27,329 nucleotides of DNA from a virus (taxonomy: Duplodnaviria > Caudoviricetes), in IMG/VR virus record IMGVR_UViG_3300007778_000028, positions 1 to 27,329 of that record. One strand, given 5' to 3'. The notes beneath the pieces were generated by a model. That model did not search any database. It was not told the DNA's origin and saw only the letters and a program-made list of their open reading frames with translations. The first letter of the stretch is position 1, and every line of letters starts with the position of its first letter. Shown here in pieces: positions 1 through 19,786 of the stretch. The translations under genes and the position numbers were made by a program.

Positions 1-810
1 CTGCTTAAGCGCTTTTTTCAGCCAAGACTGCTCACCTTTTGAGATCTCGACCATCGCCATGTCATCTGCGCCCCACGAAGAAAGTTTAGGTGCACACACT
101 GCAACCAACTCACCTTTCATCGCATTGGCGCGACGTGTAACATCGCTTGCCACACCGTCCCAGACACCTTTGTCAGCCTTGTGAACACGAATCTCACAGT
201 TATTTTTGGCTTGGAACTTATACAAGACGTCTCTTTGGTAAGATTCGCTAGTCTCTTCAAGCGACTCACCTTCAAACGACCAATCAGACTCCCAGCCGTC
301 CTCTTCGTCACTGTCACCAACGATGTGATCTTCACCGTCAACGACTACTTCAGCCTCGCCGTCCAGATCAAAGTCACCTTCAGTGCCAATATCAACGTAC
401 ACACCGCCTAGATCCGCTGCATCGACTTCAAAATCTGTATCTAAATCGTTGCCGTCATCGCTGTAGTCAAGCATGTCAGGGTCGACGCGACCCATCGCTA
501 CATCAATCGCGATAGCGGTTTCTTCGCCGTCTCCGTCTTCGACCTCTGTCCAGTCGTCACCCGCTGTACCCATCATGGCATTCAGCTTGTCGATACGCTG
601 ATCAATTACGATATCACCATCTATTGACGATTCGCCTAAATCACCCTGATCCGCGTCGTCTTCGACTTCCGTCCAATCTGTAACGGCTGCACCGACTTTA
701 CGGTCATAGTAGTCGTAACGGGCTTCGAGGTCTGGGTGGATCTCCAGCGCATTTTCGCTTTCATCGACGACACGACCGATTTTTGATAGAAGTTTAGTTG
801 CTATAGACAT
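1..810 (-). CDS. Acidic hypothetical protein with N-terminal leader (putative internal head protein), runs off the window edge
   Basis: Not in the ORF track; translated by hand. ATG at 810 with GGAG upstream. Starts MSIATKLLSKIGRVVDE, has a very D/E-rich stretch with DWTEVED twice, and ends at the window edge in ...EQSWLKKALKQ without a stop. Confidence 0.8.
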   Translation of the reverse strand, partial: MSIATKLLSKIGRVVDESENALEIHPDLEARYDYYDRKVGAAVTDWTEVEDDADQGDLGESSIDGDIVIDQRIDKLNAMMGTAGDDWTEVEDGDGEETAIAIDVAMGRVDPDMLDYSDDGNDLDTDFEVDAADLGGVYVDIGTEGDFDLDGEAEVVVDGEDHIVGDSDEEDGWESDWSFEGESLEETSESYQRDVLYKFQAKNNCEIRVHKADKGVWDGVASDVTRRANAMKGELVAVCAPKLSSWGADDMAMVEISKGEQSWLKKALKQ

Positions 811-1971: not shown

Positions 1972-2370
1972 CTATCGTCTGGTTTTACGTTTGATATTTA
2001 GTAAAGAGCGACGACGCGTACTGATCTTGCGTTGACGCTTGGTTGTACCCTTTTTAGCCGTGCGTTTTATCGCGCGATTGCGTCGCGCTTTTTCGCTACC
2101 TTTTAACATGCGATACACGCACTGACGCCGTGGGTCGACCGTCGCAATATACCCCGCACGCTTTGGACACGTGAAGCGCTTAAGCTTTATCTTTTTACCC
2201 TGACGTACAACGAACTTGACCATCTTCTTAGCACGAATTTCGGTGATAACCTCTTCACCTAGATCTGCCTCGTCGAACTCGCTATAGAGCGAGAGTTCGA
2301 CTGTCTCTGCATCATCAGCAAGACGCTCAAGAATTCGTGCAGCTAATGATGTAGTGTTATTTGAAATCAT
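1972..2370 (-). CDS. Prohead core protein-like (T4 gp68-like), acidic N-terminus and very basic C-terminus
   Basis: SLAARILERL leader, acidic stretch ending VITE, then K/R-rich VVRQGKKIK...AGY...RM...EK.RR..RRRSL...RK resembling gp68-type core proteins. Confidence 0.55.
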   Translation of the reverse strand: MISNNTTSLAARILERLADDAETVELSLYSEFDEADLGEEVITEIRAKKMVKFVVRQGKKIKLKRFTCPKRAGYIATVDPRRQCVYRMLKGSEKARRNRAIKRTAKKGTTKRQRKISTRRRSLLNIKRKTRR

Positions 2371-2975: not shown

Positions 2976-3800
2976 TTAACGCTTTTTCTTCTTACCGCCG
3001 GACTTTGTACCCTTGTCATTGACGTCGAGCACCTTGTTGAACGGTCGAGTATGGAAACCTTTTTTACGCATCACAGTCTTTGCAATTAGTTCTAGCAACC
3101 CTGAGCGCGGATTGAAGTTGAGAACAAACGGCAAATTCACGTCCGACGCCATATCTTTAATGACACCTTCAACATCTTTGCCCAACGTACGCAGCTTCTT
3201 ACCCCATTTAGTGAATACACCTGAAAACAGGCTGCTCAACTCATCCAAGGTAATCTGCTTTTTGTTGCGTGCATCATTGACGCGGTCAAAGAAATGACGT
3301 GTGAACTCAACATCGACGCCAACCGCAGCAAATAGCTTGTCGAGCTGTGCTTCCAGCGCAGAGATCTGCGGCATTGTGAGCGGTTCTGCAAGATTGATTT
3401 TCTCTTCAAGAGACAACGCTTCAAACGCCTCCGCAAACTCCGCAGGCACGATGTGAGAGAACGCTTCTAATCTATACTGCGCAGCGACAGGGTTCTCACC
3501 CTCGCGATCTGCAAATTCTTTCGCAGGATCGACCACCTCTACGTCGTCATCAGCGTCAGCCGTGAAGTCAATCGGTTTTGCCGTGTCCTTGTCGTTTTGA
3601 GACTTTGCACCCTTTTCATCGGCTTCACAGGTGTCAACCTTGTGTGCCATGCTCAGCACGTTGCCCAATCGCTGATACAATGCGTCGTACTCAGCTTGTG
3701 CGCGGGCGTTTTGCTCGATTGAATCACGAGTCACGCGATCAATAGTGGCAGTTACCGCCGCCGCCTCTGTTAGAGACAAGAGTTTCTGAGACAAATTCAT
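2976..3800 (-). CDS. Leader-bearing protein with C-terminal RegB/RelE-like putative ribonuclease domain
   Basis: Start moved to MNLSQKLLSLTE (ATG 3800, GAGG RBS). C-terminal VEFTRHFFDRV...ITLDELSSLF...LIAKTVMRK resembles T4 RegB (YSQHLLDR) and the FTxH..R motif of RelE-like folds. Gene certain, function tentative. Confidence 0.5.
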   Translation of the reverse strand: MNLSQKLLSLTEAAAVTATIDRVTRDSIEQNARAQAEYDALYQRLGNVLSMAHKVDTCEADEKGAKSQNDKDTAKPIDFTADADDDVEVVDPAKEFADREGENPVAAQYRLEAFSHIVPAEFAEAFEALSLEEKINLAEPLTMPQISALEAQLDKLFAAVGVDVEFTRHFFDRVNDARNKKQITLDELSSLFSGVFTKWGKKLRTLGKDVEGVIKDMASDVNLPFVLNFNPRSGLLELIAKTVMRKKGFHTRPFNKVLDVNDKGTKSGGKKKKR

Positions 3801-3815: not shown

Positions 3816-4244
3816 TTACTTAGCGACTTTACGGCGGCGTGGTGCTGCTTTTTTAGTCGACTTTTTCGCAGGCTTTTCAGCTTCAACAGCTGGCGCTTCT
3901 TCAACGACAGGTGCCTCTTCAACGACAGGTGCCTCTTCAACGACAGGTGCCTCTTCAACGACAGGCGCTTCTTCAACGACAGGTGCAGCCTCTACAACTG
4001 GCTCGGCTTTCTTTTCAGCCTTTTTAGCCGCTTTAGCTTCTGGCTTAGCTGCCTTTGCCTCGTGTGCTTCGAGCGCTTTACCGTGTAAGAGCATGTCGCC
4101 AAAACGGTTGAGAATTTGCTCCCAGTTGCGCAGCAGTTTGCTGGCAGGGATATCGCGAGTTTCACCCGCAGGAATTGGGGTTGCGATCTGATCAGTCGTG
4201 ATCTTCAGCGAGACAACACCCGCCGTTGCGTTTTTGATTTTCAT
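3816..4244 (-). CDS. Hypothetical virion protein with APVVEE repeats and Lys-rich tail
   Basis: ATG at 4244 (MKIKNAT) with GGAG RBS; small N-terminal domain, then a low-complexity A/K/E/P region. Confidence 0.75.
   Translation of the reverse strand: MKIKNATAGVVSLKITTDQIATPIPAGETRDIPASKLLRNWEQILNRFGDMLLHGKALEAHEAKAAKPEAKAAKKAEKKAEPVVEAAPVVEEAPVVEEAPVVEEAPVVEEAPVVEEAPAVEAEKPAKKSTKKAAPRRRKVAK
3881..4006. repeat. Intragenic 18-bp tandem repeat, ~7 copies (unit CTTCAACGACAGGTGCCT)
   Basis: Three exact copies at 3899-3952 plus degenerate flanking copies; encodes (APVVEE)n on the minus strand. Confidence 0.95.
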
Positions 4245-4683: not shown

Positions 4684-5870
4684 TTATCACTCAATGCAAA
4701 CTCAATCGTCGCATCAGTGCTCGTAATTTCTGAGCCTATCGTTTTTTCAACGTCGATTCGTTTGCCTACGCCCGCTTTAGCGAGTGCTTGTGCAAGCTTT
4801 TGCTGCAAAGCAGGCTTAATACTTAATAGCTTAAGCTCAGCTTTGAGCGGCAGATGACCGTTGAACTGCCCGTCGATATACACTTTGATATTCGGGTTCA
4901 TATCCACGGCTTCGTCGACCGTTTCGTGCGCGTCCACGGACTCAGCAGCCTCATTCGGGTACTCGCCTTTTTTCAAGCGCGCAACGACAACACCTCTGTC
5001 GTGAACCACAAAGTCACCGTTATCAGAAAATATGGTTGTATGATTTGGGTCTTTCTTTAGCTTGGCAGTTTTGAGTGCCAGCGCATATAAGTCGTTGTAA
5101 TACTTACGCCGCTTGGCTGAAACCTGTATAGCCTCCTCAACATCGCTTACGCTGTCTGACGAGTCAGCCTCAACGGACTCAGCTACCGTCTTAAGATAGT
5201 CAATCAGTGCAGATACTTGCTTACCGTTCAACGTCATCGACATGTCACGTGAGCCTTGCGTAATGCCAACTCGTGCCTGTCCTTTTTTCACCGCTGTCAC
5301 GTCTAAATCCATGCCGGACTTATCATCTGACAAAAAGAGCGTGCCCTTAACGACTTCAATTGAGTCGTCTTTGCGCTTCAAAAAATCAAACAGCTCATCT
5401 ACCGAATCTGTCTCAATCAATTTCGCCTCAATCATGCTGTCCCTCACTGCTTTAGCAACTTCGCGCCAGTCTGCATGGTCGCTATACCAATCTGTCAACG
5501 CGTCAACAGTCAAGCCGAGTTGCGCCGCTGCTTTCTCGGACGCCTTGATCCGATCCATACCTGACTTTTTGTATTTGGCAAAAGTCTTCATGTACTCGAC
5601 GTACAATTTCTCCATATCTTCATAGGAGACAGACTCATCAACAAAGACGACTCGACGTGAGACAGAACCTTGCTTCGGATCAAGCACGAGCATGCGCTCT
5701 TTGCCTTTTGCCGTGCTTTTGAAGTCCTTATGAACCTTACGGAACTCCGCTTTGGTAATGTGAACTGCGCCGTCGACGATTTTGTAGTTCGCCTCGGAAA
5801 CCTCACCGACTTCAGACACGTCAGGGCGATAGTGCTCTTGCACACTACCCATTAAGCGTTTAGCTGACAT
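4680..5870 (-). CDS. Leader-bearing multidomain hypothetical protein (putative internal head polyprotein)
   Basis: True start likely MSAKRLMGSVQEHYRPD (ATG 5870, AGGAG RBS); about five small domains separated by acidic linkers. Confidence 0.8.
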   Translation of the reverse strand: MSAKRLMGSVQEHYRPDVSEVGEVSEANYKIVDGAVHITKAEFRKVHKDFKSTAKGKERMLVLDPKQGSVSRRVVFVDESVSYEDMEKLYVEYMKTFAKYKKSGMDRIKASEKAAAQLGLTVDALTDWYSDHADWREVAKAVRDSMIEAKLIETDSVDELFDFLKRKDDSIEVVKGTLFLSDDKSGMDLDVTAVKKGQARVGITQGSRDMSMTLNGKQVSALIDYLKTVAESVEADSSDSVSDVEEAIQVSAKRRKYYNDLYALALKTAKLKKDPNHTTIFSDNGDFVVHDRGVVVARLKKGEYPNEAAESVDAHETVDEAVDMNPNIKVYIDGQFNGHLPLKAELKLLSIKPALQQKLAQALAKAGVGKRIDVEKTIGSEITSTDATIEFALSDK

Positions 5871-5880
5871 TGCTGAACTC

Positions 5881-6714
5881 CTACTTATCGAGATCTGTAT
5901 CGACGTCTGTTTCAACCGACTCGTAAACAGGTTCAATCGACATTTTGGTCATCGCGTCTTCACGCGAAACACCGAGTTGCTTCATAGCGTATTCCAAGGC
6001 TTTGAGCATCGACTTAGCGTGATCACGTGACACGTCAACCGTCTTTTTGCCCAGCGTCGCTGTCCAGCCAATAAACGTGCCTTTCTGCTGTTCTTCAATG
6101 TCGGCATCAACAGCTTCAGCTGTGGGTTTAACTACTTTGTGGGTTGCGACATTCACGACCGCATCTTTAATATGCTGTACTAACGCTTGCCCACGCATGC
6201 TTTTCAGCGATTTCCACGCTTTCTTGAGGTCATCTTCGCTTGTAGCTGTCAACACGTCCCAGACGAGTGGGTCACGCGACGGTGGATTACCGAGCGCAAC
6301 AGTCAGATCACGAGTAATCGCTTTGGCATCTTTACCTGACTTTTTAGCTATCCACTGAAGCATGTTGATTGTCGGACGCTCTTCGATCAACGCGTCGAAA
6401 GACTCATCAGCTGAATCATCGTCGTCACCAACATCTGCTAAACCCAGATCTTCAACCACCTCGGCAGATAACGCCTCTGCTTCAAATGCTTCGTGCGCGG
6501 GTACGACTGAGAGCAAACCGACTTTAGACTTGGGCACCTTGAGTGCCTTGATAGCGAACTGCTTAGCGCCGTAAAGGTCTTTCGCGTCCGTGCCTTTCTT
6601 GATCTCTATCTTTTTGCTGCCATACATGCCAATCCAGCCTGCAAGCTTGCCGCCCTGATCAAGTGGCAGGTCAAAGTATTCGAGCACAGACTGTGCTAAA
6701 CGAGAATTGTCCAT
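5881..6714 (-). CDS. Leader-bearing multidomain hypothetical protein with duplicated ~50-aa domain
   Basis: Start MDNSRLAQSVLE (ATG 6714, GGAG RBS); GWIGMYGSKKIEI... and GWTATLGKKTVDV... are related segments. Confidence 0.8.
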   Translation of the reverse strand: MDNSRLAQSVLEYFDLPLDQGGKLAGWIGMYGSKKIEIKKGTDAKDLYGAKQFAIKALKVPKSKVGLLSVVPAHEAFEAEALSAEVVEDLGLADVGDDDDSADESFDALIEERPTINMLQWIAKKSGKDAKAITRDLTVALGNPPSRDPLVWDVLTATSEDDLKKAWKSLKSMRGQALVQHIKDAVVNVATHKVVKPTAEAVDADIEEQQKGTFIGWTATLGKKTVDVSRDHAKSMLKALEYAMKQLGVSREDAMTKMSIEPVYESVETDVDTDLDK

Positions 6715-6793: not shown

Positions 6794-7240
6794 TTAAGCG
6801 CTCAAGCGCGCAATCGCAGCTCGGTACTTCTCAACCCGAGCCAAGTCTTTATCAGAAACGCTAGCCAACCGGCTTAAGTCGCTGTTGTGGGCAAGATCCG
6901 CCAGCTTAACTTCGACAGCCAAAGGGTTGGCTTCAACACGCGCCAAGTAATCATCGTAGTGCTCACCATCGACTTTTGAGAGCGCAACAACCGCCGCAAC
7001 AACCGCCTCAACGTCTGCCGCACCCGCACCACCATCAAGCAGTGCCGCACGCAGATCAGCTTCGACCATTGCAGTGTCCTCAAGGACGTCGTGAAGGAAC
7101 GCAGCCGCTTTAGCCAGCGGGCTAGACACCCCAGCCGCAACTGCACTGAGGTGACCCGCGAAGTAATCAACACCAGCCTTATCGACGTCGCCAGCGTGGG
7201 CAACTCGGGCTAGGTTTTTCGCAATCACATCAATCATCAT
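6794..7240 (-). CDS. HD-domain hydrolase, small alarmone ((p)ppGpp) hydrolase-like
   Basis: AH.G..DKAG..Y..H, AFLHDVLEDT and VKLADLAHN match the SpoT/Mesh1-type hydrolase motifs. Confidence 0.8.
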   Translation of the reverse strand: MMIDVIAKNLARVAHAGDVDKAGVDYFAGHLSAVAAGVSSPLAKAAAFLHDVLEDTAMVEADLRAALLDGGAGAADVEAVVAAVVALSKVDGEHYDDYLARVEANPLAVEVKLADLAHNSDLSRLASVSDKDLARVEKYRAAIARLSA

Positions 7241-7311: not shown

Positions 7312-8061
7312 CTACTTAGACTTGTATGAACTAAGTGCCGTATCCAACTGCGCCAGCTTTTGAGCTTCAGGTTTTGTAGAGACGCGAAGTGTAAAGGAGT
7401 AGTAAAACACAACTTTACCTGCCAGACCTTCCATAAACACGTAAGGCTCTTTGTCGAATTTTTTGATATTGATCAACTTTCCTGCATCGTCAAAAAAGCT
7501 GTCTGCAATCGCTTTCATTCTACGTTCGATATTCGAAATATCGCTAGTCGTCAATGGCGGAGCAGATGTTGTAGAAACAACGGTTACAGTTAGGCTTTTA
7601 TCAGTTAGCTTAGTCTTAACACTACCGCCTGTTGGAACGTGTCGAACTACGTTCTTAAAATCGAGAGTTGCTTCGTCAACCTGAGTTTCTTCGACTACTT
7701 CGGCTGGAGTTCCCTCTTCGTCCGCAGACTCGCTCTTAGCTTTCTTCACGTCATCGTAAGTAGCAAGACCGTTTGAATATGCCCACTGTACTTCCGCACG
7801 TTTGCCAGATAGACCTTTGGTAGCTGCCTTGTGTAACTGCGTTAGGTCATCAACCATCTTTGGAACAGAGTCGTAGGGCTGATCCAGAGTCGCACCTGTC
7901 TTAACAACCTTAGCCTGCCAATACTGCTGTCCACGAGCATTCTTTTGGCGAACAGCTTCAAAATCAATGTCGCCTACCGTGAATGTCTTACCTTCACTAA
8001 GAGTATGTTTCGGGCGGTAGTTTTCGTCCAGACCGCCCATTAGAGTTTTTGCATCAATCAT
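7312..8061 (-). CDS. Leader-bearing two-domain hypothetical protein
   Basis: Starts MIDAKTLMGGLDENYRP; acidic linker SESADEEGTPAEVVEETQVDE between two domains. Confidence 0.8.
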   Translation of the reverse strand: MIDAKTLMGGLDENYRPKHTLSEGKTFTVGDIDFEAVRQKNARGQQYWQAKVVKTGATLDQPYDSVPKMVDDLTQLHKAATKGLSGKRAEVQWAYSNGLATYDDVKKAKSESADEEGTPAEVVEETQVDEATLDFKNVVRHVPTGGSVKTKLTDKSLTVTVVSTTSAPPLTTSDISNIERRMKAIADSFFDDAGKLINIKKFDKEPYVFMEGLAGKVVFYYSFTLRVSTKPEAQKLAQLDTALSSYKSK

Positions 8062-8105: not shown

Positions 8106-8657
8106 TTACCATGAATCTTTAAGCAATATCGGTTTGCGGTCATCACCACCTACGTAGCCTTTGCGCTTTAATCCGTCGAATAAATCCGACTCTCTTTTAG
8201 CAAGCATACGTGTGTCGTCGGGATTTTGTCGCCAATCCCGCCCGTACTGCCAAGCCTTGCCACTCTCGATCCAAGCTTTAATGTCGTTCAAGAGAGCTTT
8301 CTCTTTAAGCGTAAGGTCTGAAGGCGGGTCAATCAGCAGCTCGACGGTCAGTGTATTCACGTAAGTGTCGACGCGTGAATCAATGACTTTGAGTATGCCG
8401 TCTTTAGCAAGCTTCTTAGCGATCTTGTAATCTCGCTCACCTTTCTGTCGGCTCCCCTGACTCGAACCTTTGTAGAATTTGACGTCTATTACATCGCCTT
8501 TCTTACCAAACTGACGAATGAAGTTATCCTCGGTTTTTGTAAACTTAGCTGCCTCACTCACCTGAGTATCTTCAACGATCTCAGCTTTAGCAACGTCAGG
8601 GCGATAGTGCTCGGTAACCCCGCTCATCAAAAACGCGGCTTTAGATTGTACGGTCAT
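8106..8657 (-). CDS. Leader-bearing hypothetical protein
   Basis: Starts MTVQSKAAFLMSGVTEHYRPDVAKAEIVEDTQVSE. Confidence 0.8.
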   Translation of the reverse strand: MTVQSKAAFLMSGVTEHYRPDVAKAEIVEDTQVSEAAKFTKTEDNFIRQFGKKGDVIDVKFYKGSSQGSRQKGERDYKIAKKLAKDGILKVIDSRVDTYVNTLTVELLIDPPSDLTLKEKALLNDIKAWIESGKAWQYGRDWRQNPDDTRMLAKRESDLFDGLKRKGYVGGDDRKPILLKDSW

Positions 8658-8716: not shown

Positions 8717-10066
8717 CTAAACGACGGTGAATTTGAATTTATCGTTGCCGACATTTTCAACTTCAATGTGGTCACTCATACCCGCGTAGGATACAACGAG
8801 CTTGCGACCTTTTTCCGGTAGCTTATTCGCTTCACCGCCGCCAAGTTGCTTGCTTAGTGCCAGCAAAACGTCTTCTGCATTTTTCTTAGAAACCGTTTTA
8901 CCATCAATGCCTAGCGACTTCAGACTGTTCTTCTCATCCATCTCAGCGACTGCATCGACTAGAGCCTCATCTGCCCACTTGAACAGCTTCACCGTGTAAT
9001 CTTTGTAGATAACTTCGTGATCAGCCCCGTCGCGACCGCCGATATAGCCAATTGACTTAACGTTTTTATCGTGGCGAATTTTGTTCCACTCAGCACCTGT
9101 AACAGTAATAACTTTAGGCGCTTTGGCTTTGGCTTCGGCAGTGTCAGTAGACTCCAACTGTTGATTCGACATGCGGTGAGAGAGGTAACCATAGACGTTT
9201 CGGTAAAAAGTTTCCGAATCAGTTGCGTTTTTAGCGTAATCTTTGATAACACTGAACGGCACCCAACCCTTATCCATCGCGTCAGCTAAATCTCTGTCGA
9301 ACTTTTTCGCGGAGGTACGCATCGAGTCTGCTGCGTCACGTAGCATAGAAAGTGTTTGTAGCTTTGCCTCGCGCTCAGCGCTGTCTGCTGTCCGGTTTAC
9401 ACTCATCGTGCGAAGAATATCAACCGACTTGCTGATCTGCTCGCCAACCCAAGTTTCTAGCTGGAACACGATATTGGTAATGTACATGAGGGAACTCAAT
9501 GTACCTTTACGCTTATCGGCTGGCGCGAATTTAGGGTAGAGCTTTGTCAGATCTGGATTTGGTTGCGTATTGTCGTTGATCTGTCTTTCAATCGCATCCA
9601 TGAAAAAGTCAAACTGTGGCATAAACGACTTCTTAAACCACTTTTCAAACTTTTCTAAGGCATCAATGTAGTTCTCAACTAACTTCGTTAGATCTTTGAT
9701 ATCTTTCATGTCGTGAGTTTCATCAAGTACAACGTCAGTCGACTCAATGATTCCTTTCGACCGAGCTTTCGCAAGCCCACGGAACCACGCTTCGTAGTTA
9801 ACCAAACCTGTTTCTGCATTAATGCCGAGAGCTGAACTCGGATCAGCCTTTTTAGCTGCGAAAAAAGTCGCCACGTCTGCAACGTAATTCATCGCGTAAA
9901 ATTGCTTTTCGAGACGCGAGCGTGCCGCTCCAATCCCGCTTAGATGGTTAGCCACACCTGCGAAGTCTTGTTTACTTGCAATCTCTGCGAGGCTTACAGG
10001 TTTAGCTTCGTCCAGATCGTCAGGACGGTAGTTCTCAACAACGCCCATCAATTTTTTAGTAGACAT
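8717..10066 (-). CDS. Leader-bearing multidomain hypothetical protein
   Basis: Starts MSTKKLMGVVENYRPDDLDE; internal linkers IIESTDVVLDE, QLESTDTAE and AEMDE. Confidence 0.8.
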   Translation of the reverse strand: MSTKKLMGVVENYRPDDLDEAKPVSLAEIASKQDFAGVANHLSGIGAARSRLEKQFYAMNYVADVATFFAAKKADPSSALGINAETGLVNYEAWFRGLAKARSKGIIESTDVVLDETHDMKDIKDLTKLVENYIDALEKFEKWFKKSFMPQFDFFMDAIERQINDNTQPNPDLTKLYPKFAPADKRKGTLSSLMYITNIVFQLETWVGEQISKSVDILRTMSVNRTADSAEREAKLQTLSMLRDAADSMRTSAKKFDRDLADAMDKGWVPFSVIKDYAKNATDSETFYRNVYGYLSHRMSNQQLESTDTAEAKAKAPKVITVTGAEWNKIRHDKNVKSIGYIGGRDGADHEVIYKDYTVKLFKWADEALVDAVAEMDEKNSLKSLGIDGKTVSKKNAEDVLLALSKQLGGGEANKLPEKGRKLVVSYAGMSDHIEVENVGNDKFKFTVV

Positions 10067-10069
10067 TTA

Positions 10070-10621
10070 TTAATTCACCTTTAGGTATTTAGGGTTCATA
10101 CGGTCAGCGCCGTAGATGTTGTCTTGATTGTCCTTCACTGCTTTGGCACACGTTTCAATGTACTTAAATAGTGCTTTCTGGATACGGTCGAGGTCGCCTG
10201 TCACTTTGCGCAGCTTAAGCCCCTTCAAACGTTCCATCGCAAGATGAGAGCCTTCAGGCGGATTCAGGTAGAGCGCAGACGACAGTGACTCAAACTCAGA
10301 ACGCGCATTGAACATTTCAGTTCGCGGATCAGTGGAGATCTTCAAATTATGATGAAACGGGTCGTTTTCTCGATAACCGCTCGGTAAATCCTGCTTATTG
10401 CCGATCAGACCCCAATGAATGCTCATAGATGCACCGAAGCGGGGGTTTTCCCATGCCTGAAAAAAACCGTTGGGGAAGTGCTTCTTGAACTTCGCCTCAA
10501 CTGCGTCCATGAACGCTTTGACTTCAGGAGAGTCCGGTGCGACACCGTCACTGCCTGCTTCAATTAAATTTGCGGGGCGATAGTGCTCGTTTACACCCAT
10601 CAATTTTCTCGTAATAGTCAT
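10070..10621 (-). CDS. Leader-bearing hypothetical protein
   Basis: Starts MTITRKLMGVNEHYRPANLIE; AGGAG RBS. Confidence 0.8.
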   Translation of the reverse strand: MTITRKLMGVNEHYRPANLIEAGSDGVAPDSPEVKAFMDAVEAKFKKHFPNGFFQAWENPRFGASMSIHWGLIGNKQDLPSGYRENDPFHHNLKISTDPRTEMFNARSEFESLSSALYLNPPEGSHLAMERLKGLKLRKVTGDLDRIQKALFKYIETCAKAVKDNQDNIYGADRMNPKYLKVN

Positions 10622-11513: not shown

Positions 11514-12548
11514 TTACTGCTCGATTTTGGCTTTTTTGTACAAGTTATCCATTGCGACGAAAAAGTCAGCGGTCTGGATTTCACCTTTGCTGAGCATATC
11601 GAGTGCAATTGCAATGCGTACTGCCATATCGACACCGAAAGTCTTCACATTACCTTTGAAGCCTTTGACGTCTTTCCAGACTTTATCCACAAACGCTTGC
11701 GCATCCGGTGACAAGTCGTACTCATTCGGATTAACCGCTTCGTCAACAAGTTCGGCACCTAACACGTCAGTCGCTTCAAACTCTTCACGCTTGCGGTTCT
11801 TCTTACCCTTTTTCGGAGCATTACCCATCGCAAACAGCTTCTTAGACATATGCTGATCGAATTTCGACAGATCCTGCTTGCTAGAGCGGTATTTGTTGTA
11901 GATATCGTGAGCCGCTGTTTTGTACGACCACAGCTTGCGCGACATGATCTGTAGCTCAACGATAATACCGTCGATATTCAGATCGACGTGATGCGAACCG
12001 AAGTAGCCGTATTTAGCATCGTCACCTTTGTCTTTCGACTCATAACCGACAATCATCGACTTATTTTTACGCAGAAAGTCTTTCATAAAACCTTCGACTT
12101 CAGCGGGATCGTCGAGCAAGATTGCACCGCGCACTAAGTCGTTGACGTTCTGAAAGCCCTTACCGCGCAACACAGCTTTATCAAACACCGAATCGAACGG
12201 CTTAATGCCGCTCAGCACTTTGTTTTTGCGATCTTTGAGTACGTCACGTGGCACCATTTTATTGAGCTTTTTATGCACAGCAAGCAAGGTTGGCTCAAAT
12301 TTCTTAAACAGTGACACGAGCATTGACTGAAGAACGGACTTATCTTCACCCTGCTTAATTGCCTTGTCGAGTGCCTGCACGTCGGCATCGGTAACCATCG
12401 CGGGGTTTGCCATTTCGTCAATCGCACCGAAATGCGCTTCAAACTGGTCAAGGGTTTCAAGCATCACGTCATCGAACGTGTGCACAGTGTCATCAGTCTC
12501 AACAACAGCTTTCACGTTGATCTGATCAAGAAGTTTCTTAGCTAGCAT
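11514..12548 (-). CDS. RelA/SpoT-like nucleotidyltransferase (small alarmone synthetase-like) with N-terminal leader
   Basis: IKPFDSVFDK, NDLVRG, GYFGSHH, VELQIMS and AHDIYNKYR correspond to RSH synthetase motifs Syn1-5, though divergent; starts MLAKKLLDQI. Confidence 0.7.
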   Translation of the reverse strand: MLAKKLLDQINVKAVVETDDTVHTFDDVMLETLDQFEAHFGAIDEMANPAMVTDADVQALDKAIKQGEDKSVLQSMLVSLFKKFEPTLLAVHKKLNKMVPRDVLKDRKNKVLSGIKPFDSVFDKAVLRGKGFQNVNDLVRGAILLDDPAEVEGFMKDFLRKNKSMIVGYESKDKGDDAKYGYFGSHHVDLNIDGIIVELQIMSRKLWSYKTAAHDIYNKYRSSKQDLSKFDQHMSKKLFAMGNAPKKGKKNRKREEFEATDVLGAELVDEAVNPNEYDLSPDAQAFVDKVWKDVKGFKGNVKTFGVDMAVRIAIALDMLSKGEIQTADFFVAMDNLYKKAKIEQ

Positions 12549-12559
12549 TTTAATAAACC

Positions 12560-13303
12560 TTATCGATTGCGTGGATTCCCAATTGCGTCACCATACGCCA
12601 GTGTCAGCGGTAGTAACTCAGCAATTGGAAGGTCAACTTTAAGACAGCGCGATTCCATATCAGGATCGACGAGAATTGATGATAAGAACCGGTGGTGACC
12701 GTCAAGAATGTAGTTATCTTTTGAAGCAATCAGAATCGACTTGTTCTTTACGTAATCGCGGAACGACTTAGTGCCAGATCGCGCCACAGACAACAATGAC
12801 TTATCGACGTAAATCTGCGCTTGGATTGGCTTAAGCTCTTTGACAGGTACATTTTCAAAGTACGTTTTCACGACATCATCACGATCTGACCCGTCGTGAA
12901 CCGGCAAGCCTTGCTCTAACCACTGCGCGGCGCGATCACCGGTTAGACCTTGCGGAAATGGGTTGCGCTTTGATGCGTGATCGGTGAATGGTGCACGCAG
13001 GTCGATTGCGCCTTGTGACATACGGCGCTGGAACTCCCGCACATCGTCAATATTAATCACAGGCATATCTTTACGCTTCGTCCAGCCTTTCTTAGCCTTC
13101 GCCTGTGCGAGCGCGAAGTTACGTGGGAAGTTCTCGACTTCCTCATCGAAACGGCGATTGTGAGCAAGGAATGCCAGCTGTCCAAACTCGTAGGCGTTTG
13201 CTAACTTAGTCTTAAGCAATTCCATCTGTCGATCTGATTTCAATACAGACGCAATATCGAGTTTTTCAAGCAACGTCAGGATTTCAGCAGCGCTGGTCGT
13301 CAT
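12560..13303 (-). CDS. ParB/sulfiredoxin-like domain protein with N-terminal leader
   Basis: VPVKELKPIQAQI...ILIASKDNYILDGHHRF; starts MTTSAAEILTLLE. Confidence 0.7.
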   Translation of the reverse strand: MTTSAAEILTLLEKLDIASVLKSDRQMELLKTKLANAYEFGQLAFLAHNRRFDEEVENFPRNFALAQAKAKKGWTKRKDMPVINIDDVREFQRRMSQGAIDLRAPFTDHASKRNPFPQGLTGDRAAQWLEQGLPVHDGSDRDDVVKTYFENVPVKELKPIQAQIYVDKSLLSVARSGTKSFRDYVKNKSILIASKDNYILDGHHRFLSSILVDPDMESRCLKVDLPIAELLPLTLAYGDAIGNPRNR

Positions 13304-13331
13304 GGGGTCACCTAAGTTAAAAATAGATTTG

Positions 13332-13760
13332 TTAAAGGAGTGAAGCGGACTTCGCTTTTTCGTAGTCAGACTGCCGCATCAGTACTGGGATACGGTTTAA
13401 ACCCGCGTGGTACATGGCATAAAACCGATGCCCGCCGTCGACAACCTTGAGCCGAGCGTTGACAAGCAGTGGCGGCAGTTTTGCAGCCGAGTTTATTAGG
13501 GTCTTTGCATAATCAATATTTACAGTTCGGTCTATCGCGCCAGCACTATGTTGATTCGCTCGCTCAAGTGTGCGGAAATCTAAAACAAGCAGCACATAAT
13601 CATCACCTCGCGAGGTGTCAACAAAACGCGCATGTACGTTATCTTTGTTTTTGCCGCTGAGGTAGTAGCTCTTAAGCCGTGCAACTGCGTACGTATTTGG
13701 AATAACCTCGACACTATGCACAGCCTCGAAAAGAGACAGCAGTCGGCGCGCGAGCGTCAT
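13332..13760 (-). CDS. ParB/sulfiredoxin-like domain protein with N-terminal leader
   Basis: LPPLLV...VVDGGHRFYA...G...IPV; starts MTLARRLLSLFE. Confidence 0.7.
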   Translation of the reverse strand: MTLARRLLSLFEAVHSVEVIPNTYAVARLKSYYLSGKNKDNVHARFVDTSRGDDYVLLVLDFRTLERANQHSAGAIDRTVNIDYAKTLINSAAKLPPLLVNARLKVVDGGHRFYAMYHAGLNRIPVLMRQSDYEKAKSASLL

Positions 13761-14089
13761 TTTGAGACCTTCCTAATTGACGTCAAAACCGCGCCCATAT
13801 CGCCAACCGCGAAACTAGGCTCTCCCCCGTCGCGGCTGTATAAAAAGAAGCCCACAAATCGTGGCTTATCTTTGATACCGAAAGAGACTTTATCGGTGTT
13901 GTACTTTTTGCTAGTTGAGCGACTTTTTACAAACACAGTCGCTTTTTGGCTTTTTGCCCACGAGTCGTCCCACGTAATTTCGTACGTGTCGCCTTTCTTC
14001 AGCGCATCAAACTCAGCGCGAGTCATTGCATACCTTTCAGCAACAACAGTTTCAGACAACTTCTCAAGAATAGTTTTAGCTAAAGACAT
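13757..14089 (-). CDS. Leader-bearing hypothetical protein
   Basis: True start likely MSLAKTILEKLSE (ATG 14089, AGGT RBS); ATGA overlap with the next gene. Confidence 0.75.
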   Translation of the reverse strand: MSLAKTILEKLSETVVAERYAMTRAEFDALKKGDTYEITWDDSWAKSQKATVFVKSRSTSKKYNTDKVSFGIKDKPRFVGFFLYSRDGGEPSFAVGDMGAVLTSIRKVSK

Positions 14090-14185: not shown

Positions 14186-14261
<76 letters not shown>

Positions 14262-14268
14262 AAAGACG

Positions 14269-14838
14269 TTACAACGCGGGGATCGAGAGGAAACCAACAA
14301 GATTGGCAACCACCTCAGCATTTTCCACACGGTGTCCCCAAGGAAGTGGGGTATAAACAAGATTTTCAGATTCACAATAAGCAATGGTCGAATGCGGATT
14401 AACGACCTCGTCATTCATGCCAACGATGACGTGAATCGGAGCGGCGAGTTCAACTCGACGAATACGATCTAACGGCTCAAATGCAGCACGCATTGTGTCT
14501 GAAATAGGGATATCGGTGTTAGTTGCATAATCCTTCGCGGGTCGATCTCTAAAGATCTCCAGAAACGTTGCAGGATCAAGCACTGGATTTATCGCAAGTG
14601 TTGGCAAACCGAACACTTCAGAAAGCTTCATTGCGTAGAAGCCGCCCATCGACGTACCGACAATGACGGAGGGTTTAACAGAGTTAACAGTATCACAGAG
14701 TTCGCGCATCGAACGCTCGTAGTCATGCGGCGCATAACTTGGCGCATCAACTACAAGATCTAAATCGCGCAACGCAGCTACGGTCGACGAATTTCCACTC
14801 GACCCTAACCCATGCAAATACAACACTCGTTCACTCAT
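14269..14838 (-). CDS. YqiA/YcfP-family alpha/beta hydrolase (esterase)
   Basis: YLHGLGSS, nucleophile elbow GTSMGG, INP, DEVV and GH catalytic-triad motifs. Confidence 0.85.
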   Translation of the reverse strand: MSERVLYLHGLGSSGNSSTVAALRDLDLVVDAPSYAPHDYERSMRELCDTVNSVKPSVIVGTSMGGFYAMKLSEVFGLPTLAINPVLDPATFLEIFRDRPAKDYATNTDIPISDTMRAAFEPLDRIRRVELAAPIHVIVGMNDEVVNPHSTIAYCESENLVYTPLPWGHRVENAEVVANLVGFLSIPAL

Positions 14839-14861: not shown

Positions 14862-14900
14862 ATAATAACTCGCTTGGCTTCATAAGTCAATACGCTGTTC
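14862..14900 (-). promoter_or_regulatory. Sigma70-type (early) promoter for esterase + tRNA
   Basis: GAACAGCGTA-TTGACT-17 bp-TATTAT (-35 at 14885-14890, -10 at 14862-14867). Confidence 0.8.
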
Positions 14901-15471
14901 AGGTTATTGCTTTGTTAGGGGTTCCAAACATCGCCTTACGAATCATATCGCCGCCAATTTCACGGCGGTAGAAATAGTCATCAATCGGCTCAAGCGTATC
15001 ATTTTTCAAAATTTTCTTTGCATCGGAGACTTTGATTCTGTACTTCTTAAGCAGTTTAGGGACACGCTTTTCCAGCCAGCTAAGTAGGTGATGCGAAACT
15101 TCCATATACGAACGCTCGAACTCAGCGCGCATAATGTTTTCAAAATCAACCTTACCCGTTGGCGCATCACGATTCACAGCAACAGCGACGAGCTTACGTC
15201 CAGACTTATCTTTATAGATAATCACACACGTCACAACACCTTCGCGTACCGACAACTTCCAGAACGGCATTGTCTTGACTAACGCCGCTTTGCTTTCAAA
15301 GCCAGAGCCTTTTATGCCGCCCATTTCCTTGTAAGCAGCTTGCAACATATCCCACACCTGATCGACATATTTAAGTCTCGGATCTTGGTCTTTTATAAAT
15401 AAATTGACGTAACGCTCATGGCGCGAAATAGTCGGATTTAACCGCACTAAAATTGACTCAGCTAAGGTCAT
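14899..15471 (-). CDS. Leader-bearing hypothetical protein, possibly GNAT-like fold
   Basis: Starts MTLAESILVRL; VWDMLQAAY...GG followed by a beta-rich segment. The fold call is weak. Confidence 0.7.
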   Translation of the reverse strand: MTLAESILVRLNPTISRHERYVNLFIKDQDPRLKYVDQVWDMLQAAYKEMGGIKGSGFESKAALVKTMPFWKLSVREGVVTCVIIYKDKSGRKLVAVAVNRDAPTGKVDFENIMRAEFERSYMEVSHHLLSWLEKRVPKLLKKYRIKVSDAKKILKNDTLEPIDDYFYRREIGGDMIRKAMFGTPNKAIT

Positions 15472-15624: not shown

Positions 15625-17016
15625 TCAAGAAGTAACGATGCGCAGACGTGTTACGAAGGTTGGGATAACAGATTTCAGACCTGTCCAAACCGCCGCAAAA
15701 CGCTGGTTTCTAAGTGGGTTAGAGCCAGTTCCCATTGTGTTAGAAACGAACAATGGCATGTATGGCGCATGTACCAATGGCGCTTCAAAGTGGCTGTTGC
15801 CCTTGTAGCAGCACAGCATGTCATCAGACGCGATGATGTTCGCAGCACGGATAACAGGAACTCCATTAAAGAAGCCGTATAGACCTACTGCGCTGTTCAT
15901 GCCGCCTTCAGCAGCAGTGAAACCTGCCATGCCACGCAGAGTAGCAGCAGCAGACGCGCCAGCGATGATGCGGCTGATTGAGCCACGTCCAGAGTTGGCA
16001 TTAAGAAGCGCTTCTGCCTGTGCAAATGCGTCTATAAATGTCAACTTATGTTCAGCGTAAGACACGGCAGATGGTGCAGTGCGATCCCACGTAGTTACGC
16101 CAACAGCCGCAGCGTCAAGACGCTGGATAGCCGCAGTGTTAGTTACGCGAGTCAGTTCGCCGGTTAGATCCTGAGCAACTTCGTCCATTGCAAGACGACC
16201 GAAGCGCTTGCTGAAAGAGTACTCTTGCAGGATACCAACTTCAGATTTCAGTGCGAAAACTTCAGCACGGATATCAGTAGATGCCAAAGTGCCTGCGATG
16301 CCCTGAATGTCAGACTGAGCTTCAAACAGCTGCTCGTAAGTAGCCATGATAGAAGCGCCGTTAGCAACAGCGTCAACGAAAGTTACTTCAACCATACCTG
16401 TTTCGTAGTTGATAGAACCTGTAGCGCCGTTACCCAGCAGAGTGCCGTTGCCGTCATCCATTACTTTCACGCCGCCAACGGTCGCAGTGAAGCTGCGTGG
16501 ACGAACCTGCTCATTAGCAAGGTTTGCAGAGAAAGTAGTAGTAGCGCCGTCACCTGAAGCCATAACTTCAGTAACAGTCGCAGCACCGTAAGACGAGTTC
16601 CAGTCACGTACGCCATTCTGAGCGTCCATGATGATCTGACCTTGGGTGCGACCTGCTGCGTTAGAAGTAGCAACAACCTGTTTGTAGTAGACGATGCCCT
16701 GCTCTTCCTGAATTGGCTGCGTGCTTGCTACCAGCGGAAGGATTGAGTTGCCGTGTGCAGCCGCGATTACGTCCAGAGCAACGCTTGGCAGCTGACCCAG
16801 AGCACCTACAGTGCCGGTAGACTCAACGTAGTTCTGGTACTCTTCGTACTGTTCCAGCTGACGACCGAGACAGTAGATCTCAGAAGCGGAAACAGACGCG
16901 CCTGATTTAGCCAGAGCAGAGTGAGACTCAAATGCTTCGATCTGGTCACGGTATTTTTCAAAGTAGCGGTCAGCATTGTTTTCAATGATTGACTCGTTCA
17001 TTTTTTCAAATGACAT
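15625..17016 (-). CDS. Major capsid protein (T4 gp23-like, HK97 fold)
   Basis: Start MSFEKMNE (ATG 17016, AGGA RBS), 463 aa. LVASTQPI..QGIVYY, YKG.S.FEAPLVHAPYMPL are gp23-like motifs; directly follows the protease/scaffold gene. Confidence 0.9.
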   Translation of the reverse strand: MSFEKMNESIIENNADRYFEKYRDQIEAFESHSALAKSGASVSASEIYCLGRQLEQYEEYQNYVESTGTVGALGQLPSVALDVIAAAHGNSILPLVASTQPIQEEQGIVYYKQVVATSNAAGRTQGQIIMDAQNGVRDWNSSYGAATVTEVMASGDGATTTFSANLANEQVRPRSFTATVGGVKVMDDGNGTLLGNGATGSINYETGMVEVTFVDAVANGASIMATYEQLFEAQSDIQGIAGTLASTDIRAEVFALKSEVGILQEYSFSKRFGRLAMDEVAQDLTGELTRVTNTAAIQRLDAAAVGVTTWDRTAPSAVSYAEHKLTFIDAFAQAEALLNANSGRGSISRIIAGASAAATLRGMAGFTAAEGGMNSAVGLYGFFNGVPVIRAANIIASDDMLCCYKGNSHFEAPLVHAPYMPLFVSNTMGTGSNPLRNQRFAAVWTGLKSVIPTFVTRLRIVTS

Positions 17017-17275: not shown

Positions 17276-19204
17276 TTACTTCATTAGCTTCGCAGCACGT
17301 GAAACATCGGCACCGCGTGTAGACGGTACAGGACATTCAACGCGAGCTTCGTGGAAGACGTTGTAGCGATTGCCTTCCATCAAAGATGCAGCATTGTGGG
17401 TGCGGAAACGCTCAGCCAAACGCTCGGTCAGTGTTGCATCTTCAACGAGTACAGACTCTTCTACGGCATGAGTGTCGTATGCTTCCTCTGCCTCGGAGTC
17501 TTCCGCATCGTCGTCGTCTTCGTCAGACTCATCTTCTTCGTCTGAGCCATCTTCTTCTGAGTCTTCGTCGTCAGACTCGTCTTCTGCATCAGACTCTTCC
17601 GACTCTTCAGCCACAACTTCAGCATCAAGCTCGACAACGTCAACAGCCTCAACAGCGTCCTCAAGTTCAACAGCCTCAACAGCGTCTTCAACTTCAACTT
17701 CAACAGCCTCAACAGGCTCTTCAAGTTCAACTGCTTCCTCAACCTCTGCTTCGACAGCGTCGTCTGCATCTTCACCAAGATCGAACATGCCGAGAATGTC
17801 ATCGACGCTCTTACCCGCATTGAGCATTTCAACCACAGCTTCAAGCTTCAGATGCGTGCGATCTGACACGTCGTGAGCCAATGCAGTCTGCTGCTCAACG
17901 CGCAGTGCTGTGAAGAAATTTTCACTCTGCATTAGCGCGGCGCGGATCTCAGACGGCGTACCCGCGTCAGCAACCAGCGACTCAAACGCTTCGAGTGCTT
18001 CACGAATCTCAGCAGGTGTACCTAACTCTTCGATCAACGCATCAAACGCTTCTAGGGCTTCAGTGATATCAGCCGGTGTGCCAATTACCGCGAACTGCTC
18101 TAGCTGCTCAAGGCTTTCAATGATGTGTGCAGGTGCGCCGTGAGTCTCGAAAAACTCGCGCGACTGAGTCAGCGCTTTTTCAATCTCCACGGCTTCACCG
18201 AGCGATTCATACGCTTCGACTTTAGCTAACTTCTCGCTTAGCTCTTCGACCGCACCAAACGCAGTGTAGCTTTCGAGCGCTTCTATAGCAGTCTTCAGTG
18301 ACTCAGCGACTTCGCGCTCTGAGCCATGCTTGGCATACTCAGCAATGCGTGCTTCGAGTGCTTCACGATCAGCGTGCGCAGTTGCCAGCTCTTCACGCTG
18401 AGCTTCAAGCATCTCAAGCGCTTCGTTGCGGCTTGCTTGTACGTCGCTTAGTTCCGATTTTAGTGCGTCCAAAACAGTCGCATCCACGGTGTTTTCAGTA
18501 GTAGTTGTCATAGTACTCTCTGTTTTTTCAATAGTTGCGGGTGCGACCGCAGGGATTTCAGCATGACCGTCTTCAAGCACTGCGCTTGGCGAATCACTAA
18601 GTAAAAGCTCTTTAACAGTTTCTTCCGTCAAAGATGCCTTTGTTTTCTCGCGCTCAATCTCTTCCACCAAACTTGGCTTTGCGTCTAAAAACCCTGGATC
18701 TAACACGAAATCGACGCTATCTAACGCGAACTTGCTGGGATCTATCACATTTTGACCAGCATCATTTTTAGCTTCCAGATACTCACCACGAGCGCGTGTA
18801 GAGACTGAAATAGCGGAACCGGCACGCAACAAGGTGTTGAGCGTTCGACCTGACGGTGTATTGAGGATTAGAAACTCCGCCATGCCTTTGCCCGTGGACT
18901 CGTCGATGTAAATGCGATTCACGATATGGCTAATCTTGCCTTCACGTACAGCGACGTCATCCAACGGCTGATCGTGACCAACTGAGCCAAATACAAGACG
19001 TTTCCCTAAGCGTGTTTGCAGCGACTCATCTTTGAGCGCATTCGTCCACGCTTCACGTGGGTAGAATCGGTTGTTACGCGAGGCGGAGTCAGGGAAAAAA
19101 GCTTCGCCAGAGGCACGGGCAATTATGTGCTCACCGTCGACGATAGACTGTGATTCGCTCAGCGCGACAGAATTTCCCGATTCCCAAATTTCAATAATTT
19201 CCAT
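17276..19204 (-). CDS. Prohead protease (T4 gp21-like) fused to scaffold
   Basis: NNRFYP, GSVGH, ISHIV, LNTPSGR, VSTRARG and DFVLDPGF in the first ~180 aa; then coiled coil, 20-aa helical repeats and an acidic tract. Confidence 0.88.
   Translation of the reverse strand: MEIIEIWESGNSVALSESQSIVDGEHIIARASGEAFFPDSASRNNRFYPREAWTNALKDESLQTRLGKRLVFGSVGHDQPLDDVAVREGKISHIVNRIYIDESTGKGMAEFLILNTPSGRTLNTLLRAGSAISVSTRARGEYLEAKNDAGQNVIDPSKFALDSVDFVLDPGFLDAKPSLVEEIEREKTKASLTEETVKELLLSDSPSAVLEDGHAEIPAVAPATIEKTESTMTTTTENTVDATVLDALKSELSDVQASRNEALEMLEAQREELATAHADREALEARIAEYAKHGSEREVAESLKTAIEALESYTAFGAVEELSEKLAKVEAYESLGEAVEIEKALTQSREFFETHGAPAHIIESLEQLEQFAVIGTPADITEALEAFDALIEELGTPAEIREALEAFESLVADAGTPSEIRAALMQSENFFTALRVEQQTALAHDVSDRTHLKLEAVVEMLNAGKSVDDILGMFDLGEDADDAVEAEVEEAVELEEPVEAVEVEVEDAVEAVELEDAVEAVDVVELDAEVVAEESEESDAEDESDDEDSEEDGSDEEDESDEDDDDAEDSEAEEAYDTHAVEESVLVEDATLTERLAERFRTHNAASLMEGNRYNVFHEARVECPVPSTRGADVSRAAKLMK
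17912..18325 (-). repeat. ~20-aa helical repeats in the scaffold (GTPxEIxEALExF), ~7 degenerate copies
   Basis: GTPADITEALEAFDALIEEL / GTPAEIREALEAFESLVADA / GTPSEIRAALMQSENFF and more divergent upstream copies. Confidence 0.75.
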
Positions 19205-19222: not shown

Positions 19223-19786
19223 TCAGCGCTGAACTAGATCAGATAGAAAGTCTGTCTGCTCGTCTGTCAGCTTTGCAGCACTACCAGCAAGTAGCGCGGT
19301 TCGCAATTCGATCTCTAGCTCATCGAGCAGCGGCATCGACTCTTCAAACAGCAATGAATAAGCTGATTCTTCATCGATAGAGCTGGAGTACTTAAGATCG
19401 ACACTCAAATGTGTTTTCAGCGAGTTGAGCGCCACTAAGCATTCAACCAGCAACACTCTGTCAGCGCACTCTCGCATCGCTAACCAGCGCGCGAGCTTGC
19501 GGTGAAAACGTTTACCTTTTGTGGAACGGGCGAAACGCTTAATGCCCTTTTCCAAATTATTACGCTTAAGACGCCACTGCTTTTTCGTCATTTTCGAGCG
19601 CTTCAAATCTTTGACTCGACTGAGCTGCCTCGCACGCTGCGTCAGCGTCTCTTGATCTGTGAACTCATACACAGACTGGTCTGAATCAGACTGAACAAGC
19701 TGCTCACTGCCGACTTCAAGCTCAAACAGAACGCGATCTGCGACGGAGCCAAAGCGGATTTGTGTTTGTGAATCGCTATTTGACAT
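19223..19786 (-). CDS. Putative prohead core protein with central basic segment
   Basis: Lies between portal and protease; SVADRVLFELE N-terminus and a K/R-rich middle. Confidence 0.55.
   Translation of the reverse strand: MSNSDSQTQIRFGSVADRVLFELEVGSEQLVQSDSDQSVYEFTDQETLTQRARQLSRVKDLKRSKMTKKQWRLKRNNLEKGIKRFARSTKGKRFHRKLARWLAMRECADRVLLVECLVALNSLKTHLSVDLKYSSSIDEESAYSLLFEESMPLLDELEIELRTALLAGSAAKLTDEQTDFLSDLVQR

Follow-up and report, generated by a model that had tools for sequence, protein, structure and literature searches.

How unrelated proteins of one phage may come to enter the same head is the question raised by a stretch of viral DNA of 27,329 nucleotides (the 27.3-kb 'window' analysed here, which is an entire contig). 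Its minus strand encodes a head module of terminase, portal, fused protease-scaffold and major capsid protein, and downstream of the capsid gene lie about 25 genes, mostly without annotation. About 14 head-region proteins in the window begin with variants of a motif that is also present at the tail of the scaffold. The herpesvirus scaffold tail bears a coat-binding C-terminal helix and is grouped with that of P22; we know of no natural N-terminal copies of the scaffold helix on the P22 ejection proteins. In T4, passages of two sources describe the CTS as a leader of IPI–IPIII that is removed by gp21 (PMC9026906, PMC9958956). One of them, a 2023 review, adds that other core proteins do not conserve the CTS and calls the localisation of proteins in the T4 core still mysterious (PMC9958956).

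A fused protease-scaffold and its terminal motif

The capsid protein and scaffold of the window have matches in Ab1-TPeters, RP13, IME392, EP_H11, Vibrio 1.031.O, 150E35-1 and the Rhizobium TM30 group, and a more remote match in YerA41. The protease-scaffold consists of the protease (about residues 1–180), helical scaffold repeats (242–474), an acidic tract and the tail; protease residues H77 and S135 are invariant in 14 homologs, and PF03420 is present in homologs. In contrast to this fusion, 150E35-1 and YerA41 encode the protease and the scaffold separately (L013 3388–5772, P0010, L159 39124–41097), and in P0010 the protease is preceded by a domain resembling the product of window gene 19223–19786.

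The first-pass annotation had recognised in the scaffold C-terminus look-alikes of two sorts of cargo leader. The peptides lie where it had placed them, at residues 591–600, 603–612 and 635–642 of the 642, and their likeness to the leaders is above chance; what it took for two signals, however, is three tandem copies of one motif, 8–10 residues long, that is terminal clade-wide. An AF2 model of the whole protease-scaffold (mean pLDDT 63, tail below 50) predicts, with low confidence, tail helices at 592–602, 605–608 and 636–641, the rest of the region being unstructured. All three copies are kept in P0001, the closest relative's scaffold, with identities of 8/10, 7/10 and 7/8, unlike the acidic tract, which is identical at only 44 of 113 positions. 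Hydrophobic-x-Glu sites at 583, 610 and 619 separate the copies of the window, and no Glu follows the terminal one.

The motif S-[RL]-[AG]-x-R-L-M-E-S-F was found de novo by a Gibbs search of the last 40 residues of relatives' scaffolds (n = 73). The set was obtained by clustering 137 closed scaffold ORFs from fetched loci and protein matches; it excludes the window and its own record, P0001, P0007, P0010–P0012, two protease-only halves and one truncated ORF. In 53 of these 73 scaffolds of the RP13/IME392/TM30-like clade the motif lies at most 3 residues from the stop; column 5 is R/K in 55 and column 6 is L/I in 62. With the 73 scored on training data, one copy reaches a score of at least 8 in 54 scaffolds, two in 9 and none in 10, while three copies at this score are found in the window and P0001. 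Conservation and modelling support the view that the tail motif behaves as a conserved terminal docking helix.

As for the capsid protein, its predicted model (pLDDT 82.8) has its best fold matches in the capsids of P1, S6 and T4, with P1 on top. A predicted N-terminal prodomain (about residues 1–65) is helical in this model, and the pair E65–S66 is invariant across six close homologs. In the closest viral relatives (L002 8417–10606 and L003 8419–10606), the capsid gene is interrupted by about 800 bases with another ORF, possibly an intron.

Table 1. Features of the window; ranks refer to the relatives' tail profile and posteriors to the unsupervised model of N-termini
Feature	Position	Strand	Support
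Fused gp21-type prohead protease and scaffold, 642 aa	17276..19204	-	phrog_207, E 7.5e-24
Acidic tract, residues 476–588, predicted disordered linker ahead of tail	17441..17779	-	pLDDT <50, without secondary structure
Tail copy 1, residues 591–600, nearest class-A leaders	17405..17434	-	rank 1/8114
Tail copy 2, residues 603–612, weakest, nearest class-B leaders	17369..17398	-	rank 9/8114
Tail copy 3, residues 635–642, terminal; aligns with clade-wide motif	17279..17302	-	rank 2/8114
Major capsid protein, gp23-type HK97 fold; proposed helix partner	15625..17016	-	PF07068 above cut-off
Class-A leader of 190-aa gene 14899–15471	15433..15471	-	posterior 0.93; rank 13
Class-A leader of 110-aa gene 13757–14089	14051..14089	-	posterior 1.0; rank 4; ATG at 14089
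Class-A leader of 142-aa gene	13722..13760	-	posterior 1.0; rank 6
Class-A leader of 247-aa gene 12560–13303	13262..13303	-	posterior 0.97
Weak class-A leader of 344-aa gene 11514–12548	12513..12548	-	by eye; uncalled by unsupervised model
Class-B leader of 183-aa gene	10574..10621	-	sequence; rank 11 with 8-column tail profile
Class-B leader of 449-aa gene	10019..10066	-	sequence; weak tail-profile score
Class-B leader of 183-aa gene, nearest tail copy 3	8595..8657	-	rank 21
Class-B leader of 249-aa gene	8011..8061	-	sequence; weak tail-profile score
Weak class-A-like leader of 277-aa gene	6673..6714	-	posterior 0.33; rank 33
Class-B leader of 396-aa gene	5820..5870	-	rank 11
Class-A leader of 274-aa gene	3762..3800	-	posterior 1.0
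Leader of 132-aa basic head-region gene; top leader match to tail motif	2314..2370	-	rank 3/8114, score 17.5
Class-A leader of acidic gene running past window edge	757..810	-	posterior 1.0; rank 17

Tail and leaders compared in both directions

The leaders of the window are sorted into classes A and B, the latter retaining the L-M pair of the tail and adding an extension, E-[HN]-Y-R-P. A pattern search of 2166 related-locus proteins gave 0 matches to this extension, and the scaffold tail holds no counterpart of it beyond a loose E..Y in copy 2.

In one direction, a tail profile trained on relatives, without the window or P0001, was scanned over the 8114 positions of 38 window proteins. N-terminal leaders were found at ranks 3, 4, 6, 11, 13, 17 and 21, and the top 20 included 6 positions within the first ten residues of a protein, against 0.94 expected (p 2e-4). 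Clade-wide, the same profile reached a score of at least 8 in 19 of 1178 N-termini versus 0–6 at matched internal offsets, with controls at 0/66 (T4 genes) and 0/32 (opposite-strand genes), the column permutation p for these N-termini being only 0.016. In the other direction, from leader to tail, an unsupervised model of N-termini yielded the leader motif [SN]-[KLR]-A-x-[KED]-[LI]-[LI]-x-x-[LI]-E in 181 of 1178 proteins (154 families), whose alignment to the tail motif has offset 0 (p 3.5e-4 by permutation). A single block among 3787 from 16 conserved families, itself a leader, was nearer the tail profile than this motif, and the margin over the best non-leader block was small (4.94 for the leader motif versus 4.73).

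Also from the leader side, the first-pass annotation had proposed beforehand that leader-derived profiles should score the tail better than amphipathic helices, and this is what was observed. With six class-A leaders, picked by the unsupervised N-terminal model, 6 of the 3621 amphipathic 10-mers that share its helical register scored as high as tail copy 1; with five class-B leaders, copy 2 was equalled by 6/3621 (10 columns) and copy 3 by 3/3621 (8 columns) in-register helices. Each copy thus stands above at least 99.8% of them. A joint A+B profile places all three copies within the top 0.1–0.9% of in-register helices; since all three score with this one profile, the two leader classes represent versions of a single helix, and the idea of two separate signals in the tail was rejected. 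Random 63-residue segments equalled the best tail match in 6–8 of 3971 cases for A (10 columns) and B (8 and 10 columns), and in 157 of 3971 for A at 8 columns, the A set here being 10 leaders of which some were chosen after the tail-profile ranking was known. These comparisons support the conclusion that tail and leaders share one motif beyond the chance likeness of amphipathic helices.

Over the clade, this likeness is patchy, which weakens the mimicry reading, and the present genome is among the clearest cases of a tail–leader match, not the rule. When a genome's own leaders are made into a profile, the tail of its scaffold is detected (p < 0.05) in 5 of 19 cases with 8 columns and in 6 of 19 with 10. 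This is a minority, yet it exceeds the single detection due to chance (binomial p 0.002 for 8 columns, 0.0002 for 10), and the best match in some of these genomes is not the terminal copy. In YerA41, the clade profile gives the end of the scaffold a score of −2.2, and with the own-leader profile this end ranks no better than 945/26714. In L062, about 24 small genes flanking the head genes on both sides start with a leader of M-S-K-A type, an array larger than any other observed; its scaffold end fits the tail motif poorly, and its own leaders (n = 24) have no match to the tail. Covariation between own tail and own leaders was not significant (p 0.06 over 8 or 10 columns, n = 17 genomes, two having been dropped for a weak tail motif), nor was it column by column (p 0.19–0.49), and column 5, Arg/Lys in most tails, is frequently Glu or Asp in leaders. 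The further claim that the leaders originated from the scaffold tail gained no support from the DNA: of the 96 residues that tail and leaders share, 29 have identical codons, which is the chance level (about 0.2–0.3 for the residues compared), so recent copying of tail DNA into leaders was rejected. The leaders may have arisen from the tail or have converged on it. Class-B leaders compared among themselves share the codon at 30 of 68.

The leader-bearing genes as putative cargo

Beyond the leader the proteins have little in common: past residue 36, the 14 bodies gave 0 pairwise matches at E 0.01. The homolog search for class-B cargo returned one near-identical match only, and nothing above 0.77 was found for it in the Atlas. 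Of the 16 leader-like proteins of the window, 11 have a potential cleavage site of the form h-x-E-[ASG] among their first 45 residues, versus 4 of the 22 others, three of these four being capsid protein, scaffold and portal. Clade-wide, 109 of 181 leaders end at hydrophobic-x-Glu, a count that is not independent because the Glu column belongs to the fitted motif, and sites downstream of the leader motif are not enriched (23/181 versus 132/997).

Particle data exist for YerA41, in which six genes in the vicinity of the terminase have leader scores of at least 0.98; among 94 ORFs elsewhere in the genome, 1 scores as a leader. All six products are marked as particle-associated by LC-MS/MS in Table S2 of PMC7354516, versus 20 of 46 for other genes of the same scaffold (Fisher p 0.011) and 5 of 20 for genes of at most 180 residues (Fisher p 0.002); genes were mapped to that table by order and length and counted by hand. 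The six are neighbours, and the particle list also includes terminase and endolysin and gives no in-head location (PMC7354516).

Minus-strand genes in 12560–13760 form an adjacent leader-bearing pair: one, of 142 aa, is weakly similar to a ParB N-terminal domain (PF02195, E 0.0028, below cut-off), and the other, of 247 aa, matches phrog_2859 and has an L043 homolog with a different leader variant. The 344-aa protein (phrog_37685, E 5.5e-37) has a RelA/SpoT-like nucleotidyltransferase region (PF04607, E 1.5e-4, below cut-off) and, given its weak leader, is a candidate virion-delivered enzyme. The 132-aa gene (1972–2370) has a homolog in L004 that also starts with a leader; its identification as a gp68 homolog found no support (E 22). 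A tRNA-Thr(TGT) gene (14186–14261, minus strand) lies within the cargo gene cluster, the neighbours at 14269–14838 (alpha/beta hydrolase) and 6794–7240 (HD hydrolase) are without a leader, and the gene at 3816–4244 (minus strand), in the position of a conserved head-region gene, encodes a run of roughly five hexapeptide repeats in tandem, with Glu, Ala, Pro and Val abundant in them.

What the shared helix may bind

The preferred reading, to which about an even chance is given, is that the leaders dock at the site of the scaffold helix on the coat, that cargo rides into the prohead and that the fused protease clips it free. The terminal helix of the scaffold would be the coat-docking element, reaching the inner face of the capsid protein across the acidic linker, with a partner that is probably the cleavable N-terminal region or N-arm of that protein. 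While the prohead assembles, leaders would fill this docking site on some of the capsid subunits, after which the gp21-type protease would cut after Glu and remove scaffold, prodomain and leaders, leaving the cargo in the head for later ejection into the host. Helix formation, the capsid partner, one pocket for tail and leaders, cleavage and ejection are steps that we infer. Docking on the coat is modelled on P22 and on 80alpha; for the latter, passages of PMC5644958 place the tails of the scaffold and of SaPI1 CpmB at the same site, the N-arm helix of the coat.

As with 80alpha and CpmB, a second protein bears a copy of the terminal amphipathic motif of the scaffold. However, CpmB is described there as a satellite's size-redirecting scaffold with a C-terminal copy made of a helix and an RIIK hook (PMC5644958), whereas the window copies are N-terminal, putatively cleavable, devoid of the RIIK hook and borne by many unrelated proteins of the phage itself. 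The P22 coat-binding helix-loop-helix, compared by its description in the same source, is likewise a basic amphipathic C-terminal helix behind a flexible linker (PMC5644958). With T4, the window phage shares a gp21-type protease, a gp23-type capsid protein and, as far as passages on the CTS go, a short common N-terminal leader on unrelated proteins, late ones in T4, which in the window may likewise end at a hydrophobic-x-Glu cut site. It differs from T4 in that protease and scaffold are fused, that about 14 cargo genes are present versus 3–4, and that the leader motif recurs in the scaffold, set against what parts of PMC9958956 report for the CTS. In the one T4 genome scored, tail–leader likeness was rejected, the gp22 end scoring 1.4 and the IPI–III leaders lying off-profile (−9 to −12, posterior at most 0.13). 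P1, whose capsid is the top fold match of the window capsid protein, offers another comparison in DarA/Hdf: its internal anti-restriction protein DarA has a cleaved N-terminus proposed to act with a scaffold domain at capsid sites. Unlike the window leaders, this is a propeptide of 69–90 residues ahead of a body that is folded and binds the capsid, a separate scaffold is absent from P1, and the passages available describe no common short leader on many cargos (PMC12810830). No account of leaders repeating a scaffold tail, or of the motif itself, was found in the full-text papers searched, a set with few subscription journals. The proposed arrangement would work like the T4 CTS through another sequence, and like CpmB by mimicry, here placed at the N-terminus of cargo that the phage itself encodes.

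Sequence evidence equal to that for coat docking would fit a helix that assembles the core, tail copies and leaders binding the scaffold core (or the portal) so that cargo co-condenses with scaffold and not with coat. This alternative, which we consider rather unlikely, draws on T4, which has a capsid protein of the same gp23 type and whose internal proteins co-purify with gp22 and carry propeptides described, in passages of PMC9026906, as core-targeting. The T4 CTS is, however, unlike the gp22 end by the tail profile, so that T4 need not be the model, and a motif at the extreme C-terminus behind a disordered linker fits better the coat-reaching tails of 80alpha and P22, as excerpts of PMC5644958 present them. 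The leaders might also be capsid-targeting propeptides with a site of their own, their likeness to the tail reflecting a shared need for a short amphipathic helix capped by Ser/Thr and, in the window, some luck. The patchiness speaks for this, 13–14 of 19 genomes as well as YerA41 giving no significant match to their own tail, as do the non-significant covariation, the differing charge at column 5 and the missing DNA trace of copying. Against it, all three copies pass the in-register amphipathic null at 0.1–0.2%, the profiles of leaders and tails, each derived without the other, line up at offset 0, and the own-tail detections still exceed the one expected (binomial p at most 0.002); we consider a separate site unlikely.

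Very improbable, in our estimate, is that the helix is a ligand for an exosite of the prohead protease, steering cleavage without being a loading signal. Protease and scaffold do form one chain, most leaders end at a putative cut site (with the caveat given above for the fitted Glu column), and such sites lie between the tail copies. Yet the terminal copy has no Glu after it, the N-termini of capsid protein and portal, which are the expected substrates, have sites but no helix motif, and in T4 the CTS residues that serve targeting can be told apart from those that serve processing, according to passages of PMC9026906.

Coat docking has a broader form, to which slightly less than an even chance is given: in the RP13/IME392/TM30-like clade, the coat-docking helix of the scaffold would be a general loading code, and the triple tail of the window an answer to competition. 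An N-terminal copy of 10–12 residues with a Glu cut site would then suffice to get the product of any gene packaged, and leaders on up to two dozen small proteins per genome would compete with the scaffold for one capsid pocket. If this were true, T4-type capsid targeting would gain a defined receptor and a portable tag. With a leader that is visibly the terminal helix of the scaffold, the question of core localisation in T4 becomes one of peptide competition, in a clade that includes the E. coli phage IME392. The leader could act as a short packaging tag, and its profile points to likely injected proteins (181 proteins, 154 families) in a phage group that is mostly unannotated. Among small proteins of the clade, RP13 ORF65 (L010 30089–30418, 109 aa) has two motif copies at its start with N-E-S sites between them, like a miniature of the two-copy scaffold tails in RP13's subgroup.
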